From a virus (Duplodnaviria > Heunggongvirae > Uroviricota > Caudoviricetes): a DNA stretch of 51,620 bases. The notes under the pieces were generated by a model that was given only the letters and a program-made list of their open reading frames with translations, ran no database searches and had not been told where the DNA came from. The stretch spans positions 1 through 51,620 of IMG/VR virus record IMGVR_UViG_2541047950_000002. One strand, written 5' to 3'. Position 1 is the first letter of the stretch. Every line of letters begins with the position of its first letter. Shown here one piece after another: positions 4,775-16,295 of this stretch. A program made the position numbers and the translations under genes.

Positions 4775-5599
4775 TCAGGCGGTGAAAGTACCAATAAAGG
4801 TTTCTACTTTGCTGTCTTTGAATTTCTCAACAAGCAGATCACGAAATTCGTTAGCCATTTCTTCCTGCACCGCTTCCAGCTGAATAATGCGCAGAACCAG
4901 TACAGGACGATCGCCAGTGATAATGCTGAGGCGTAATTTAAACGGACGTTCTTTCAGACCTTCAAACGGAACGCATTTAAATTCAAATGCCACTGGCATA
5001 ATGTCTTTGGTCTTCGCTTCGACAGACTCCATCAGGGAGCGTTTGCCGCTGAAGTCATTGTCTTCAAAATCAGCGGTCTGGTTTGCTTCAATCGTGATTT
5101 TACGGACTGCCGCAGCCGCTTTTGTTGCCTGAATAGCGTCACCATTAGCATCAAAGCCCACAAGGTAGTCGGCCCAGTCTTCGATCCATTCTGCCAGTGA
5201 TTTCTGGGAGTTACGCTCGCCATTAACAGACAACAGAGCAGAGAACGGTGCTGTCTTTTTCAGTTTGAGAGTGGCGGTGTTATCTGCGTGACCTGGTTCA
5301 TCAATAGTACCCAGGTTAAGCACACTGACGGCACGCATATTATCAGCATCGATAAAGCAGCGGGTGCCTTCATCTGCAAGATCTTTAGAATAACGGGTAA
5401 AGTCATCGATGCTGGCAGTGGAAAGCGCACCACGGAAACGGAAGCGATTTAAATTAAATTTTTCCAGATCATGAATGCGGAAATTCTCAGGCAATGCCAC
5501 AGCATCGGCACCAATCTTACTGATAATTTCATTAACACCCTGAGCAGAAATAAGGGCATGGATTTGATTAATTGCGGTTGCGTCTAAGTTCTGAGACAT
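4775..5599 (-). CDS. yfdQ: YfdQ-like DUF2303 family protein
   Basis: 274-aa ORF; length and sequence recall CPS-53 YfdQ. Confidence 0.55.
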
Positions 5600-5664
5600 A
5601 ATAAGTCCTCACTATATAAAGATATTCAGTGATGAGATAAATAATCAGTTAATTAAGAACGATA

Positions 5665-6027
5665 TTAATGACCTGCTGCGCGGAGTTTTCCGTCAGGTTC
5701 ACCGGCAAGAGTCAGTAATTGTCCCTGGTCTTCCTGCAGAATAGTCAGGCGACCACCGCGATTGACATACATCGGAGTTTCGGTGGTGTCTTCTTCGGAA
5801 ATTTTCCCGCGGTTAGTCGGGCGAACATATGAGAGTTTGTGTTTGATTTTCACACGGTTCTCATCAAATGGTTCGATTTCCAGGTTGAGCGAGACCTTAC
5901 CTTTGGTTTTCGTATTCATCACACCGGAAGCGACTTCACTGAGAACAGCGCCGATTTTGGTTTCAAATACGCCGCCGTCCAGCTCCCCGATAAATGCCTG
6001 CACATCAGTACTGCGTTCGCTAGCCAT
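5665..6027 (-). CDS. first gene of the leftward early operon (YfdP-like hypothetical, 121 aa)
   Basis: Internal ATG at 6025-6027 (MASERST) has GAGGAG about 7 nt upstream; the longer track ORF to 6213 has no RBS and runs through a hairpin. Confidence 0.45.
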   Translation of the reverse strand: MASERSTDVQAFIGELDGGVFETKIGAVLSEVASGVMNTKTKGKVSLNLEIEPFDENRVKIKHKLSYVRPTNRGKISEEDTTETPMYVNRGGRLTILQEDQGQLLTLAGEPDGKLRAAGH

Positions 6028-6075
6028 TTTGTTGCTCCTCATCATATCGACCCTGCAAGGTCGGTTGGTTTCTCC

Positions 6076-6174
6076 ACAAAACAGAGAAGAACACCTGCGG
6101 TGGCAGCCGCCCGGATGGATTGGGTTATGAGCCCGTCGTCCGGTGATGCTCTTCTCTGTTTTGTAAAAAGAGCG
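6076..6174 (-). promoter_or_regulatory. boxA-like motif plus long stem-loop in the pL leader (candidate nut/put-like RNA element)
   Basis: On the - strand CGCTCTTTTTACAA (6161-6174) runs into an 18-bp inverted repeat, 6147-6164 pairing with 6076-6093 at 17 of 18 positions, 48 nt upstream of the first early gene. Confidence 0.4.
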
Positions 6175-6704
6175 GTACCAGCCGGAAGCAAGTGTACAAA
6201 CTGGTACTGCCAAAGCAGTGGCTGTTGTGGTGACCGGTGCTGATCTCCGGCTTGCGGTTATTTCAGACTCTCACGGGCGTTTGATTGCCCCGCCGAACAG
6301 CTCTTTTCCGCAATAGCTGCAATGTCTTTCGCGCATCAGCCTGCGCATTCACCACAACGCTGAGAGCATTGCCGGTGTCCGAATCGAACGGACCTTTTCC
6401 CTGCCCAACCCTCCCATCTGAATGGGACTGTCTGGAATTGAACCAGCACTTATGCCTTGCTCGTCAATGCTCTCATCGTTGCGTCCTGGTCTCTTCCCAG
6501 GCGTCAAACCGAATCGCCACGCTGGTTAGGCGTCTTATCAGCATCCTCATTGACTTGCACATTCCGGCTACCTGGTTTGTTTGCCCGAGCAAGGAGTGGA
6601 TTGTCCCCTTTAACGTCCCCAGACCGCTAACGACGCATGTGCCATACGCCGTGTTACAACCAAATTTTGTTAGGACCTTGTTTGTTGGTCTGGAAAGAAA
6701 GATA

Positions 6705-6805: not shown

Positions 6806-7498
6806 TTAATTGTGTCGCTTAAGGGTTTGTGACTGACTGATTAAGACCTTCCCAAAGACCATAAACCGGTGTTCATTTTCGCTGGTAATTCCCCATTCAC
6901 GGTAAATCTGGTTATCAGAAATTACCAGTAGTTTGTCAGGTATCATTTGCAGTCGTTTGACATAAATTTTATCATCAAAACCAAACACATAGATACCATC
7001 CCCATCAAACTGATTGATACTGATATCAACGAAGATGAGATCTCCTGGCTCAATGGTTGGACACATACTGTCCCCACGAACGTTGATAACTTTAATGTGA
7101 TTGGCTGGTCGTCCTCCAAACATCGATACAGCATTATCAGTTATGTATTCAATGGCATGAATCACATCAATGACATCACCGCCCTGGATAAGGCCATTTC
7201 CCGCACTGGCACTGACATCCAGCATTTCAATACGGAATACATCCTTCACCTGCGCAACATCCTCACCAGTACTGTTTTTACATACAGTATTACTTTTGAA
7301 GTCTGAGGTAAAGAGATCTGCAATATCAACACCTAAGCTCCTGGCAATATTACTCAGGGCTTGTTCAGTGAATTGTTTCTGCTTACCTGTTTCCAGGCGT
7401 GAGATATTCGCCGCATCCACTCCTATTGCTTCAGCGAGATCGGCGATTTTCATGTTCTTCGCCTGGCGAAGTTGTCTGACTCGATTTCCTATGTTCAT
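6806..7498 (-). CDS. CI-like prophage repressor (XRE HTH plus S24 LexA-like peptidase domain)
   Basis: 230 aa; N-terminal HTH (NIGNRVRQLRQAKNMKIADLAEAIGV); C-terminal S24-type domain (RGDSMCPTIEPGDLIFVD); divergent from the cro-like gene. Confidence 0.85.
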   Translation of the reverse strand: MNIGNRVRQLRQAKNMKIADLAEAIGVDAANISRLETGKQKQFTEQALSNIARSLGVDIADLFTSDFKSNTVCKNSTGEDVAQVKDVFRIEMLDVSASAGNGLIQGGDVIDVIHAIEYITDNAVSMFGGRPANHIKVINVRGDSMCPTIEPGDLIFVDISINQFDGDGIYVFGFDDKIYVKRLQMIPDKLLVISDNQIYREWGITSENEHRFMVFGKVLISQSQTLKRHN

Positions 7499-9781: not shown

Positions 9782-10596
9782 GTATGGAGCTGATGGTTAA
9801 AGCGATGAAAATTCGAGTGGGTAATCCATTGCGAAAACTGGTTCTGATCAAGCTGGCTGATAATGCCAGCGATCAGGGTGAGTGCTGGCCCAGCTACCAG
9901 CATATTGCTGACCAGTGCGAGATTAGCAAACGTTCTGTGATGAATCATATTGCGGCCCTTTGTGAGTCCGGGCTGGTAAAAAAAGTCACCCGGAAAGGTG
10001 AAAAAGGTAACTCAAGTAATATCTATCTCCTTCATCTTGATGGTGCAGGAGATTCACTAGGGAGTAGTGCAAATAATTCACTATCTGGTGCAGCAAATTC
10101 ACCAGGTAGTGCAGGAGTTGCACCAGGGGGTAGTGCAGGAGATTCACCCAGAACCAGTCACTCTTTTGAACCAGTCAAAGAACCAGTCAATGAACCAATA
10201 GCTGTTGGTGCATCTGCTGATGAGTCTGTGCGAGTTCGTTCAAACCGATCGGAATACTCTCCGGAGTTTGAGCAGGCATGGCTGGCATACCCCAAACGTG
10301 CTGGTGGCAATTCAAAATCTGCAGCCTTCAAAGCCTGGAAAGCCCGTTTGAATGAGGGGGTAAAACCCGAAACCATGCTGGCAGGTGTGAAACGCTACGC
10401 GGGCTGGGTATCTGCGATGGGTAACAGCGGCACACAATTTGTGAAACAGGCTGTCACGTTCTTTGGCCCGGATCGTCATTTCGAAGAATCCTGGGAAGTT
10501 CCTGCGGTATCTGCAGCCAGACGCGAGGACCCGTACTTCAAAGCCAGTTACGACAACGTGGACTACAGCCAGATCCCGGCAGGATTCAGGGGGTGA
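9778..10596 (+). CDS. replication initiator, O-like (N-terminal HTH, iteron-encoding linker, C-terminal domain)
   Basis: 272 aa; N-terminal winged-helix-like region; the central low-complexity linker is encoded by the 21-22 bp tandem repeats; same architecture as lambda O. Confidence 0.55.
   Translation: MSMELMVKAMKIRVGNPLRKLVLIKLADNASDQGECWPSYQHIADQCEISKRSVMNHIAALCESGLVKKVTRKGEKGNSSNIYLLHLDGAGDSLGSSANNSLSGAANSPGSAGVAPGGSAGDSPRTSHSFEPVKEPVNEPIAVGASADESVRVRSNRSEYSPEFEQAWLAYPKRAGGNSKSAAFKAWKARLNEGVKPETMLAGVKRYAGWVSAMGNSGTQFVKQAVTFFGPDRHFEESWEVPAVSAARREDPYFKASYDNVDYSQIPAGFRG
10041..10149. repeat. iteron-like tandem repeats (candidate origin of replication) inside the O-like gene
   Basis: About five imperfect 21-22 bp direct repeats (GGTAGTGCAGGAGATTCACC-like) followed by three GAACCAGTCA repeats. 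Confidence 0.5.
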
Positions 10597-11087
10597 GCAT
10601 GGGTCTTTTGAATGACGTTCAGAAATTCATTGAAGCCCATCCGGGCTGTACTTCCGGAGACATTGCGGATGCTTTTGCAGGTTACTCACGGCAGCGCGTT
10701 CTGCAGTCAGCAAGCAAGTTACGTCAGAGTGGGCGTGTGGCTCACCGTTGTGAAGGAGATACACGCAGACATTTCCCGCGCCTGACTGAGAGAGCGCAGG
10801 AGCCGGAACCACAACCAGTTCGTGAAACCAGACCTGTGCGCAATTTCTATGTCGGCACTAACGATCCACGGGTGATTTTGTGCCTGACCCGCCAGGCTGA
10901 AGAACTGGAGTCAAGGGGCTTATACCGTCGTGCTGCAACCGTGTGGATGGCGGCATTCCGTGAAAGCCACTCCCAGCAAGAACGAAACAATTTTCTGGCA
11001 CGTCGTGAGCGGTGCTTACGGAAAAGCAGCAAGCGCGCTGCATCGGGTGAAGAGTGGTATCTGTCAGGGAATTACGTGGGGGCTTAA
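10593..11087 (+). CDS. PerC-like regulator with N-terminal extension
   Basis: 164 aa; C-terminal GLYRRAATVW resembles the PerC/Pch signature as recalled; start GTG 10593 or ATG 10599. Confidence 0.4.
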   Translation: MSMGLLNDVQKFIEAHPGCTSGDIADAFAGYSRQRVLQSASKLRQSGRVAHRCEGDTRRHFPRLTERAQEPEPQPVRETRPVRNFYVGTNDPRVILCLTRQAEELESRGLYRRAATVWMAAFRESHSQQERNNFLARRERCLRKSSKRAASGEEWYLSGNYVGA

Positions 11088-11740
11088 TGAGTAATAAATA
11101 TTGCCAGGCGCTGGTGGAACTGCGGAACAAACCAGCCCATGAACTGAAGGAAGTGGGCGATCAGTGGCGCACGCCGGACAACATTTTCTGGGGAATTAAC
11201 ACCCTGTTTGGCCCGTTTGTTCTGGATCTGTTTACTGACGGTGATAACGCCAAATGTGCCGCGTATTACACGGCGGAAGACAATGCGCTGGCGCATGACT
11301 GGTCAGAACGTCTTGCGGAGCTTAAAGGTGCTGCCTTTGGTAATCCCCCATACAGCCGCGCCAGTCAGCATGAGGGGCAATACATCACCGGCATGCGTTA
11401 CATCATGAAGCATGCCAGTGCCATGCGTGATAAAGGCGGGCGCTATGTTTTCCTGATCAAAGCTGCCACCAGCGAAGTGTGGTGGCCGGAAGATGCAGAT
11501 CATATTGCTTTTATTCGCGGGCGTATTGGTTTTGAACTGCCTGCCTGGTTTATCCCGAAGGATGAGAAGCAGGTGCCGACAGGCGCTTTCTTCGCTGGAG
11601 CTATTGCTGTTTTCGACAAGACCTGGAAGGGACCGGCAATCAGCTACATCGGGCGCGATGAACTTGAGGCATGTGGTGAGGCCTTTCTGGCGCAGGTTCG
11701 CCAGCAGGCAGAAAAACTGGTCAGGGAGATGGCGGCATGA
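11087..11740 (+). CDS. phage N6-adenine DNA methyltransferase
   Basis: 217 aa from MSNKYCQ; NPPY catalytic motif (GNPPYS); TAATG overlap with the upstream gene. Confidence 0.7.
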   Translation: MSNKYCQALVELRNKPAHELKEVGDQWRTPDNIFWGINTLFGPFVLDLFTDGDNAKCAAYYTAEDNALAHDWSERLAELKGAAFGNPPYSRASQHEGQYITGMRYIMKHASAMRDKGGRYVFLIKAATSEVWWPEDADHIAFIRGRIGFELPAWFIPKDEKQVPTGAFFAGAIAVFDKTWKGPAISYIGRDELEACGEAFLAQVRQQAEKLVREMAA

Positions 11741-12063
11741 CGACGTTAACTCAATGCCAGCAGCAGGTGCTGGATATGCTGATTTCTTATCAGAAAGAGC
11801 GTGGCTTTCCGCCAACCAATCAGGAGGTGGCAACCATGCTGGGATACCGTTCAGTGAATGCAGCGGTAGAGCATCTTCGCGCACTGGAGAAAAAAGGCGT
11901 CATCACGATAAAGCGTGGCGTGGCCCGGGGGATAACGCTTCATACCGCGGTGAAGGACGACGACAGCGAGGCGGTCGGGATTATCCGCGCACTGCTTGCC
12001 GGTGAGGAAAACGCAAGGCTGCGTGCAACCCACTGGTTACATGAGAGGGACCTGAAAGTATGA
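11737..12063 (+). CDS. LexA DNA-binding-domain-only protein (no S24 peptidase domain)
   Basis: 108 aa; GYRSVNAAVEHLRALEKKGVI closely parallels the LexA N-terminal segment [21 protein letters not shown]; ends before any protease domain. Confidence 0.55.
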   Translation: MTTLTQCQQQVLDMLISYQKERGFPPTNQEVATMLGYRSVNAAVEHLRALEKKGVITIKRGVARGITLHTAVKDDDSEAVGIIRALLAGEENARLRATHWLHERDLKV

Positions 12064-12449
12064 AGCTGATCCTGCCTTTTCCGCCCAGCGTGAACACGTA
12101 CTGGCGACACCCCAACAAAGGGGCGTTTGCTGGTAAGAGCCTGATAAGCGCGGCGGGGCGAAAATTCCAGAGCGCGGCGTGCGCAGCAATAGTTGAGCAG
12201 TTACGTCGTCTGCCGAAACCAACGTCGGCACCTGCTTCAGTGGAGATCGTGTTGTTTCCTCCGGATAACCGGATCCGCGATCTGGACAACTATAACAAGG
12301 CGCTGTTTGACGCCCTGACCCACGCGGGGGTGTGGGAAGACGACAGTCAGGTGAAAAGAATGCTGGTGGAGTGGGGACCGGTTATCCCGGAAGGGAAGGT
12401 CGAGATCACTATCAGTAAGTACGAGAAAACGGCGGGTGCAGCTGCCTGA
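12060..12449 (+). CDS. rusA: RusA-family Holliday junction resolvase
   Basis: 129 aa; MKLILPFPPSVNTYWR N-terminus and acidic DLDNYNKALFDAL motif typical of RusA. Confidence 0.8.
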   Translation: MKLILPFPPSVNTYWRHPNKGAFAGKSLISAAGRKFQSAACAAIVEQLRRLPKPTSAPASVEIVLFPPDNRIRDLDNYNKALFDALTHAGVWEDDSQVKRMLVEWGPVIPEGKVEITISKYEKTAGAAA

Positions 12450-14275: not shown

Positions 14276-14292
14276 TTTTGTGGAGAAAGTTG

Positions 14293-14673
14293 ATGCGTGA
14301 TATTCAGATGGTTCTTGAACGCTGGGGGGCATGGGCGGCAAGTGGTAACACCGGGGTGGACTATTCTCCGATCGCTGCCGGATTCAAAGGACTTTTACCA
14401 TCTGCCACTAAACCACGTCCGGCCTGCTGCGATGATGACGGACTTATCATTGAAAACTGTCTTGCTCGTCTGAAGCAGAAAAAACCTGAGGAGTATTCGC
14501 TTCTCATTGCTCATTATTTGTTGCGAATATCAAAAAGACAGATAGCCAGGACGAGAAAGAAAAGCGAAAAAGCAATACGAATTGAGATGCAGATAGCCGA
14601 AGGGTTTATTGACGGATGTTTGTCTGTGCTGGGGGTAAGACTGGAGATGGACGACTGGCTGCTAAAAAAGTAA
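14293..14673 (+). CDS. Q: late-gene antiterminator Q (phage 21/933W type)
   Basis: MRDIQMVLERWGAWAA N-terminus recalls Q of the 21/933W group; last gene of the coupled early operon, followed by a terminated short leader. Confidence 0.65.
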   Translation: MRDIQMVLERWGAWAASGNTGVDYSPIAAGFKGLLPSATKPRPACCDDDGLIIENCLARLKQKKPEEYSLLIAHYLLRISKRQIARTRKKSEKAIRIEMQIAEGFIDGCLSVLGVRLEMDDWLLKK

Positions 14674-14767
14674 AAAATGATTAGCGCGGTCCGCAAAAAG
14701 TATGTCAGTATGTTAAGAGTGGTTACTTCGCCACACAGCTTAAACCCGCCGCGAGCGGGTTTTTTTA
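14674..14767 (+). promoter_or_regulatory. late promoter/qut region with tR'-like terminator (hairpin at 14743-14767)
   Basis: Intergenic segment after Q ending in hairpin CCCGC-CGCGA-GCGGG and a T7 run. Confidence 0.5.
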
Positions 14768-15236: not shown

Positions 15237-16295
15237 ATGCTTAATACTGTAAAAATATCCAGTTGTGAGTTAATCAACGCCGACTGCCTGGAATTTATCC
15301 GGTCGTTACCCGAAAATTCTGTTGACCTGATAGTCACGGATCCGCCGTACTTTAAAGTGAAGCCTGAGGGCTGGGATAACCAGTGGAAGGGCGACGATGA
15401 TTACCTGAAGTGGCTGGACCAGTGTCTTGCGCAGTTCTGGCGGGTGCTGAAACCTGCCGGAAGTCTTTACCTGTTCTGTGGCCATCGCCTAGCATCTGAT
15501 ATCGAAATCATGATGCGTGAACGCTTCAGTGTGCTGAACCATATTATCTGGGCAAAGCCGTCCGGACGCTGGAACGGGTGCAACAAGGAAAGCCTGAGGG
15601 CGTATTTCCCCGCCACAGAGCGCATTCTGTTCGCGGAACATTATCAGGGGCCGTATCGTCCGAAAGATGCCGGGTATGAGGCGAAGGGCAGGGCACTGAA
15701 ACAGCATGTGATGGCTCCGCTGATTGCTTACTTTCGTGATGCGCGTGCTGCCCTAGGGATAACGGCAAAACAGATAGTGGATGCCACAGGAAAGAAAAAC
15801 ATGGTGTCGCACTGGTTCAGTGCCAGTCAGTGGCAACTGCCGAACGAAAGTGATTATCTGAAATTACAGGCGCTGTTTGCCCGGGTGGCAGAAGAGAAGC
15901 ATCAGCGGGGTGAACTGGAGAAGCCCCACCACCAGCTGCTGGAGACGTATACTTCACTGAACCGGCAGTATGCGGAACTGCAGAGTGAATATAAGCATCT
16001 GCGGCGGTATTTTGGCGTGACGGCGCAGGTGCCGTACACCGATGTGTGGACGCATAAACCGGTGCAGTACTATCCCGGGAAACATCCGTGCGAAAAACCG
16101 GCAGAAATGCTGCAGCAGATAATCAGCGCGAGCAGTCGTCCGGGGGACCTGGTTGCAGATTTTTTCATGGGGTCGGGTTCGACAGTCAAAGCCGCGATGG
16201 CACTGGGGCGTCGTGCAACTGGTGTTGAGCTGGAGACTGAACGTTTTGAGCAGACGGTCAGGGAAGTTCAGGATTTAGCCAGTCAGAACGGATGA
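15237..16295 (+). CDS. DNA methyltransferase (N4/N6 amino-MTase, DPPY motif)
   Basis: 352 aa; N-terminal VTDPPYF catalytic motif; C-terminal FFMGSGST AdoMet-binding motif. Confidence 0.7.
   Translation: MLNTVKISSCELINADCLEFIRSLPENSVDLIVTDPPYFKVKPEGWDNQWKGDDDYLKWLDQCLAQFWRVLKPAGSLYLFCGHRLASDIEIMMRERFSVLNHIIWAKPSGRWNGCNKESLRAYFPATERILFAEHYQGPYRPKDAGYEAKGRALKQHVMAPLIAYFRDARAALGITAKQIVDATGKKNMVSHWFSASQWQLPNESDYLKLQALFARVAEEKHQRGELEKPHHQLLETYTSLNRQYAELQSEYKHLRRYFGVTAQVPYTDVWTHKPVQYYPGKHPCEKPAEMLQQIISASSRPGDLVADFFMGSGSTVKAAMALGRRATGVELETERFEQTVREVQDLASQNG

Follow-up and report, generated by a model that had tools for sequence, protein, structure and literature searches.

A lambdoid prophage gene for a LexA-type DNA-binding domain that carries a conserved helical hairpin in place of the S24 peptidase domain

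The window analyzed here, i.e. the whole 51,620-nucleotide stretch of Caudoviricetes DNA in IMG/VR record IMGVR_UViG_2541047950_000002, is a lambdoid prophage of Escherichia coli. The three segments that were compared with phage 1720a-02 proved nearly identical to it, and phages mEp460 and SfII are close as well. On its plus strand, an open reading frame (ORF) running from ATG to TGA at 11737..12063 (stop codon included) encodes a protein of 108 amino acids that matches PF01726, the LexA DNA-binding domain (DBD) family, and PHROG 362. The translation of this LexA-DBD gene contains GYRSVNAAVEHLRALEKKGVI. A Shine-Dalgarno sequence, GGGAGA (11724-11729), lies 7 nucleotides ahead of the ATG, and the start codon overlaps the stop codon of the preceding dam gene within ATGA (11737-11740), so that the ribosome-binding site and the overlap together span 11724..11740.

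A preliminary description of this DNA had likened the product to the N-terminal winged helix of LexA and had noted that it ends before any S24 domain. Both statements were borne out. Alignment with the LexA-DBD profile, the check proposed at that time, gave a match of the 108-amino acid protein to Pfam LexA_DNA_bind (PF01726) with E=2.9e-19 and 69 bits (cutoff 23.7), covering positions 1-65 of the 65 in the model. Residues 2-70 of Escherichia coli LexA aligned with the phage protein without gaps in HMMER, and an ungapped comparison of phage residues 1-69 with E. coli LexA yielded 35 identities in 69 positions (51%). The S24 peptidase (PF00717) was not found in the 108-amino acid protein by Pfam and TIGR00498 profile searches. 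TIGR00498, the equivalog model of full-length LexA, scored 70.6 bits, which is below its cutoff of 110.95, and only positions 1-91 of 203 were matched. The Ser/Lys dyad of LexA proper is likewise absent, as the protein is complete after 108 residues and RusA is the product of the overlapping ORF that follows. A frameshifted or truncated full-length lexA was ruled out because no S24 remnant lies downstream and a length of 105-111 amino acids is kept in five genera. The match to PHROG 362 ("transcriptional repressor") was full-length, with E=3.8e-59, and paired residues 1-108 with positions 1-106 of a 106-position profile; further matches were obtained with PHROGs 24920, 3502, and 29443. Membership in a defense system was dismissed; PADLOC returned only a weak CARF-related match over the helix-turn-helix (HTH), with E=3.6e-4. 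The protein thus belongs to the LexA DBD family by structure and yet is not LexA proper, given the missing S24 domain, the missing dyad, and the sub-threshold equivalog score.

An AlphaFold2 model was built from an alignment of 21 family sequences. Its mean predicted local distance difference test (pLDDT) score was 85.5, with a low-confidence linker that reached its minimum at residues 71-73. The head, a LexA-type winged HTH comprising residues 1-69 (11737..11943, +), was predicted to contain helices at 6-22, 28-35, and 40-52 and strands at 56-58 and 66-68. In the model, residues 40-52 form the recognition helix and residues 56-68 the wing. The best match in the PDB was the LexA-operator complex 3JSO, with a root-mean-square deviation (rmsd) of 1.0 Å over 68 columns at 50% identity. 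The top seven matches were all E. coli LexA chains (rmsd 1.0-1.3 Å), and so was every match with E ≤ 0.002 a LexA structure. Because the fold is specific to LexA in this sense, a generic winged helix unrelated to LexA, which the preliminary description had named as the finding that would overturn it, was ruled out.

Behind the linker, a conserved two-helix hairpin (residues 74-103, helices 74-88 and 93-103; 11956..12045, +) takes the place of the S24 domain. Both helices were predicted with confidence (pLDDT about 90). The tail aligned with that of homologs at 38-65% identity, and positions A79, L82, R84, G89, A93, R94, A97, F/Y/W100, and L101 were conserved across genera. A PDB sequence search with the tail gave no match, and a Pfam NIL match (E=0.063) was treated as noise. 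The earlier designation of the protein as a LexA DBD without the protease therefore needs amendment: the DBD is genuine and S24 is missing, but the protein is not merely a truncated domain, since a conserved two-helix tail has been added. The hairpin is presumed to be a dimerization or partner-binding module. In HMMER, residues 79-90 weakly resembled the linker and cleavage region of LexA (...LLAGEE versus VAAGEP), from which we deduced that the first tail helix may descend from that region. Within this segment, A88-G89-E90 (11998-12006) was aligned with the scissile Ala84-Gly85-Glu86 of LexA. Residue conservation was counted over 64 members of the family that share less than 70% identity with the window protein; in these, Gly89 occurred in 46 and an acidic residue 90 in 51, and Ala88 in only 16. 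A predicted helix ends at this triplet, no catalytic domain is present in cis, and the triplet does not qualify as a LexA cleavage site. It is possibly a relic of the cleavage-site region that has been reused as the turn between the helices.

The DNA-contacting residues of LexA, as listed at second hand in PMC3091678, are Ser39, Asn41, Ala42, Glu44, and Glu45. Four of these five base-contact residues (Ser39, Asn41, Ala42, and Glu45) are kept in the window protein, and Glu44 is replaced by Val. Among the 64 divergent members, Ser39, Asn41, and the wing residues Lys53 and Arg64 were invariant, Ala42 was present in 60, and position 45 was Asp or Glu in 56. The changes near the DNA, which take away acidic residues of LexA or introduce basic ones, are E44V, E57T, V59K, and S60R; residue 71 is Ala. 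At that last position, E71K is a LexA variant that binds more tightly and dissociates more slowly (PMC3159453). These data are best explained by a small regulator that derives from enterobacterial LexA and presumably binds DNA.

The gene lies within an uninterrupted plus-strand delayed-early nin block. The order of genes in the prophage is CI (on the minus strand), Cro, CII-like, Rha/Ash, replication, PerC-like, Dam, LexA-DBD, RusA, KilA-N, a 331-amino acid ORF whose counterparts in related prophages are DUF968 proteins, and Q (14278..14673). The upstream neighbor is the Dam N6-adenine methyltransferase (11054..11740, +; PF05869, E=1.1e-45). The downstream neighbor is the RusA Holliday-junction resolvase (12060..12449, +; PF05866), the ATG of which overlaps the LexA-DBD stop codon in ATGA (12060-12063), so that the gene overlaps dam with its start and rusA with its stop. 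Neither promoter-like sites nor convincing plus-strand terminator-like sites were found in the LexA-DBD gene block before tR'. The terminator at tR' is located at 14742-14762, and the late genes lie behind Q and tR'. By analogy with lambdoid gene organization, the LexA-DBD gene should be delayed-early and its product made after N-dependent readthrough from pR. Two genes upstream of it, the ORF at 10593..11087 (+) contains a PerC-type C-terminal region (PF06069, E=2.2e-9).

Two other regulators of the same prophage, which the preliminary description had placed in the SOS circuit, were confirmed by profile matches. The first is a CI-type repressor (6806..7498, -) with an HTH (PF01381) and a Peptidase_S24 domain (PF00717, E=1.2e-18), which is predicted to be cleavable from its Ala-Gly site (SASA/GNG) and its GDSM and VKRL motifs. 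The second is the DinI-like gene (48711..48959, -; PF06183, E=4.6e-20). At the right end of the prophage, a tyrosine integrase gene stands beside the DinI-like gene and host dusA (49021..50118, -, and 50207..51244, +). Because the integrase directly adjoins dusA, the prophage appears to be integrated there, with int at the tail-fiber end and not by the early-left genes.

The gene is already annotated and widespread, and its observation is in itself ordinary annotation. Among 5426 complete E. coli genomes, 2233 (41%) carried it, with as many as four copies apiece, under the label "LexA family protein." Fifty GenBank phage records carried it at 95-99% nucleotide identity, including mEp460, SfII, 1720a-02, and Stx2a and Stx2c phages. 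The labels in these phage records vary: mEp460 has "LexA DNA binding domain protein," and at the other extreme stands "SOS-response repressor and protease LexA," which is erroneous. Rrf2 is another wrong label, given to some members of the family. The PHROG 362 or NCBI "LexA family protein" of mEp460, SfII, and the Stx2a/Stx2c phages is the same family, with no difference from the window protein. A pangenome study of Stx phages lists the LexA-DBD family as pham 237 (PMC8136144). The family has been annotated from sequence only, and no functional study of it was found in the literature searched. A "bully phage" preprint on 1720a-02 ascribes prophage interference to Cro and not to the LexA-DBD gene.

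For neighborhood counts, 80 IMG/VR loci were retrieved; the loci compared are phylogenetically non-independent. The 108-codon ORF was intact in 80 of 80, and RusA followed in all 77 loci with a downstream flank, as it did in Salmonella and Atlantibacter. The upstream gene was Dam in 57 and PerC-like in 21, and the remaining 2 loci had no upstream flank. In prophages of Cronobacter, Salmonella, and Atlantibacter, this slot was filled by homologs of 105-111 amino acids with 45-57% identity. The window, the IMG/VR loci, and three genera thus agree in where the gene sits within the nin region: replication, PerC-like, and methyltransferase genes precede it, and rusA follows. The 4-nucleotide overlap with the upstream methyltransferase gene recurred in Cronobacter and Salmonella prophages; in Cronobacter, an extra gene separates the LexA-DBD gene from rusA. 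In every genus examined, a PerC-like gene stood ahead of the methyltransferase/LexA-DBD/RusA block; in the 21 of 80 loci mentioned above, it abuts the LexA-DBD gene itself.

A methyltransferase gene lay directly upstream in eight of eight Cronobacter, Salmonella, and Atlantibacter loci (L165-L172, genes ending at about 10000). The enzymes belong to unrelated families, namely PF05869 (Dam), PF02086 (MethyltransfD12), and PF05869 followed by a 696-amino acid protein, the latter with a weak match to PF00145 (C5-methyltransferase). The slot may be either a hotspot for methylase replacement or the sign of a functional link.

Between genera, synonymous sites were saturated, with a proportion of synonymous differences (pS) of 0.62-0.84; the proportion of nonsynonymous differences (pN) ranged from 0.24 to 0.32 for the DBD and from 0.32 to 0.40 for the tail. 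For the tail alone, the pN of 0.32-0.40 compared with a pS of 0.70-0.84. As pN stays well below the saturated pS, DBD and tail are both under purifying selection across four genera. Short proteins consisting of only a LexA DBD were frequent in phages of many hosts in BFVD. A search of representative proteins also returned proteins of 140-350 amino acids with two separate LexA-DBD stretches (P0130, P0131, P0148, P0150, P0153, and others). The shortest of these tandem-head proteins leave no remainder the size of S24, and they would represent another way of offering two heads to a palindrome.

SOS boxes in the prophage were sought by simple pattern matching and with a LexA matrix for which about 21 operators of E. 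coli were used. Two 20-mers of the window had at most three mismatches to the SOS consensus, compared with 0.00 expected. The best candidate, TACTGTTTTTACATACAGTA (7270-7289; 25.4 bits, three consensus mismatches), lies inside cI, in codons 70-77 of the linker between the HTH and S24 domains. On the cI strand it reads TACTGTATGTAAAAACAGTA, one base away from the umuDC operator. It forms a conserved island: the cI of Cronobacter agreed in 19 of 20 positions of the box and in 19 of 30 and 13 of 30 positions of the flanks. In the cI of phage Eeyore, with an identity of about 67% (73% within the aligned part), the corresponding figures were 17 of 20 (23.6 bits), 15 of 30, and 12 of 30. mEp460 has the identical box, SfII and Cronobacter prophages have a perfect one, and all 80 loci with the cI allele of the window contained the box. 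Promoter-like hexamers beside it were not found on either strand by scan or by eye.

A second candidate, TACTGTAAAAATATCCAGTT (15245-15264; 23.8 bits), occupies codons 3-9 of a late N6/N4 methyltransferase gene (15237..16295, +) downstream of Q and two terminators. It was kept in 79 of 80 loci with the methylase allele of the window, and in a divergent allele the corresponding site is also occupied by a box. Such conservation at the 5' end of the gene suggests LexA control of the phage methylase. A third candidate, TACTGTGTTTGTATACAGTA (48973-48992; 23.1 bits), lies just upstream of the DinI-like gene in tandem with a weaker one at 49001-49020 (15.2 bits). In mEp460 the same tandem pair scored 23.1 and 21.6 bits and overlapped the promoter annotated there. 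By analogy with host dinI, the phage homolog is presumably SOS-induced. Further boxes were seen in related prophages. An intergenic one, TACTGTATTTATGAACAGTG (21.4 bits), lies right after rusA in 10 of 80 related loci, 764 nucleotides after the LexA-DBD start (at about position 10765 in L029, L038, L046, and L053). In an Atlantibacter prophage (L171), a 22.4-bit box at 5829-5848 lies between a gene for an S24-less repressor (5968..6564, -) and one for an 85-amino acid protein (5343..5600, -), a layout that recalls LexA-controlled antirepressor modules. The strong phage boxes strengthen the idea of an SOS-wired phage.

What might the LexA-DBD protein do? We tentatively favor, at slightly less than even confidence, a RecA-insensitive stand-in for LexA that would bind SOS boxes during lytic growth and keep or restore repression. 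In the proposed mechanism, the LexA winged-helix head would have been retained and the RecA-responsive S24 domain for self-cleavage and dimerization exchanged for the conserved hairpin. The gene would be transcribed with the delayed-early nin genes and be translationally coupled to dam or the PerC-like gene upstream and to rusA downstream; it follows from such transcription and coupling that the protein would be made once lytic development is under way. Two copies would sit on SOS boxes of the CTGT-N8-ACAG type, joined by the hairpin, by LexA-like contacts between the DBDs, or by both. Since it has no catalytic domain, the protein should not be open to inactivation by RecA*. The VAA-COOH end of the N-terminal cleavage fragment of LexA is exposed as a ClpX tag, and the C terminus of the phage protein (...DLKV) appears unlike it. 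SOS promoters would in this way be kept or made silent while host LexA is cleaved. The host regulon would be the universal target, with the phage boxes in cI, the late methylase gene, and the dinI-like gene as possible extras. We infer DNA binding, SOS-box specificity, dimerization, the timing of expression, and a repressing rather than an activating outcome. The occupancy of SOS boxes and the tuning of the SOS and induction circuit, both put forward in the preliminary description, are likewise inferred.

Published work on LexA is consistent with the proposal. The N-terminal fragment of LexA is reported to keep both SOS-box binding and repression, and for this reason ClpXP must remove it for full SOS induction (PMC10584840). 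Two LexA DBDs share an extensive interface on the operator (PMC3159453). A stable and separately encoded LexA head that bears a helical module would thus most simply be a RecA-insensitive binder of SOS boxes, and the phage protein could probably occupy SOS operators and escape being switched off when DNA is damaged. Compared with the E. coli LexA N-terminal domain (residues 1-84; 1LEA, 3JSO), it shares the fold (rmsd 1.0 Å), 51% gap-free identity over residues 1-69, Ser39, Asn41, Ala42, Glu45, Lys53, and Arg64, and the lack of S24. It differs in being the product of its own gene, whereas the LexA domain arises by autocleavage, in the 35-residue conserved helical hairpin behind the wing, and in the replacement of Glu44, Arg28, and Glu57. 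The LexA Ind- mutants (G85D, S119A; 1JHF, 1JHH) resemble the proposed RecA*-resistant SOS repressor, and overexpressed non-cleavable LexA variants have been used to disable the SOS response (PMC3159453). These mutants are dimers of full length whose S24 domain is intact but inactive, whereas the phage protein has no such domain and would have to dimerize otherwise. BlaI/MecI, MarR/MepR, Rrf2, and MntR also have an N-terminal winged helix followed by C-terminal helices and gave weak full-length fold matches; at an rmsd of 8-13 Å over the full length and 12-24% identity, this likeness is an analogy of architecture only.

Several observations weigh against a SOS-box repressor. Glu44 occurred in none of the 64 family members, which have N, A, T, L, F, or V instead, Arg28 of LexA was never Arg in them, and Glu57 was replaced by Thr or Ser. 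This family-wide replacement looks like a deliberate shift in DNA recognition, and the same specificity as that of LexA cannot be assumed on account of it. The conserved Arg84 and Arg94 of the tail could equally mean a protein partner. The timing of expression is deduced from gene order alone. The only characterized phage-encoded homolog that consists of just a LexA DBD, gp6 of the Bacillus thuringiensis tectivirus GIL01, is an activator.

The distribution of the boxes adds to these points. Strong SOS boxes numbered 63 in 1.32 Mb of gene-bearing loci and 1 in 1.26 Mb of lambda-NinG control loci. Among loci with the cI-box allele, 59 had a cro-side flank of 6 kb or more; 52 of these carried the LexA-DBD gene and 7 did not. 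The box-bearing methylase allele was seen with enough upstream flank in 40 loci, and the gene was absent from all of them. Conversely, the cI-box allele was found in only 27 of 66 gene-bearing loci, and no phage-borne SOS box was found within 10 kb on either side of the gene in its Atlantibacter carriers. As 0/40, 27/66, and the Atlantibacter carriers mark the enrichment as largely an effect of lineage or module, it was rejected as proof of function and was not used as evidence. The occurrence of boxes in phages that lack the gene leaves the link between the two unproven. The boxes are best explained as operators for host LexA in an SOS-wired phage lineage; that they are extra targets of the LexA-DBD protein is plausible but unproven. 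The Atlantibacter carriers without a nearby box point to host boxes as the common target.

The alternative that survives best, which we consider doubtful but serious, is a dedicated phage transcription factor of the gp6 kind. Its head would have drifted to a non-SOS phage operator from which it activates or represses a phage promoter, and its tail would contact RNA polymerase or serve in dimerization. Like the phage protein, gp6 is a LexA DBD without a catalytic domain from a temperate phage, and it is expressed early in the lytic program (PMC6182141). It activates the late promoter P3 through a palindrome that is not that of LexA, GaCACAn-nTGTGaC (PMC6182141). The family-wide replacement of Glu44, Arg28, and Glu57 fits such altered specificity. 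So does the recognition helix, which varies between clades (SVNAAVEH, SPNAATDM, SHNAAAEH, and SPNAANDH), and short LexA-DBD proteins are, as noted, common in phages of many hosts. On the other hand, Q switches on the late genes of lambdoid phages and is present here, so that no late activator is needed. Ser39, Asn41, Ala42, and the acidic residue 45 are kept as in LexAs of the CTGT class, whereas the authors of the gp6 study propose evolution toward a distinct sequence (PMC6182141). No conserved non-SOS palindrome was found, albeit by searches that did not include de novo motif discovery. By description, too, the two proteins are set apart: gp6 is a near-bare winged helix whose 14-residue C-terminal extension forms the wing in the authors' homology model (PMC6182141), and the phage protein has the hairpin, a recognition helix like that of host LexA, and a Q-dependent lambdoid background.

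The RecA-insensitive stand-in for LexA can also be given a stronger form, which we regard as unlikely. The protein would then be a RecA-proof SOS off-switch and a commitment lock. With the lytic genes switched on, it would re-occupy boxes vacated by LexA and silence host SOS functions that might kill or arrest the cell too early, the LexA-controlled antirepressors of rival prophages, and colicin operons, and it would hinder CI resynthesis through the box in the cI linker.

A role through a protein partner appears quite improbable. The tail would bind a partner, for example RusA, the methyltransferase encoded upstream, RecA, or LexA, with the head as its tether to DNA or as a vestige. This idea draws on rusA as the next gene in 77 of 77 loci and in other genera, on a preceding methyltransferase of three unrelated families (PF05869, PF02086, and PF05869 plus PF00145), and on the conserved charged tail residues R84, R94, and acidic position 95. 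Joint inheritance of genes that are translationally coupled can, however, account for the synteny; moreover, it is broken by the gene inserted before rusA in Cronobacter and by the PerC-like upstream gene in 21 of 80 loci. The DNA-contact residues are the most conserved positions of the protein, which argues against a vestigial head.

Still less can be said for an anti-LexA, which we judge very improbable. Such a protein would compete for SOS boxes or poison LexA binding without repressing, thereby raising SOS and favoring induction. It would use the same operator-like recognition residues as LexA, and phages are known to manipulate LexA, GIL01 gp7 being an example. However, any protein on a box that overlaps a promoter represses, the LexA N-terminal domain has been reported to repress and not to derepress (PMC10584840), and the phage protein has no LexA C-terminal domain with which to form mixed dimers. 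Finally, a decaying and functionless remnant of a captured lexA, to which the truncated TIGR00498 match and the weak likeness of residues 79-90 to the LexA linker might point, is effectively refuted by the intact ORF in 80 of 80 loci, the presence in 2233 E. coli genomes, the same length in four further genera, a pN of only 0.24-0.40, and the conserved tail.

The SOS response governs prophage induction, the release of Shiga toxin after antibiotics, mutagenesis, and persistence. The gene, which 41% of complete E. coli genomes and also Stx2a and Stx2c phages carry, is potentially relevant to the induction of Stx phages. If the favored reading is true, a RecA-resistant phage surrogate of LexA would be a simple viral takeover of the SOS switch, and with repression at SOS boxes the protein would be a compact LexA of natural origin that resists cleavage, of use in synthetic biology or in strategies against the SOS response. 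Should the off-switch and lock prove true, one small gene would be a determinant of induction dynamics and competition between prophages. If the protein instead works as gp6 does, LexA heads would have been recruited repeatedly as phage-specific regulators.

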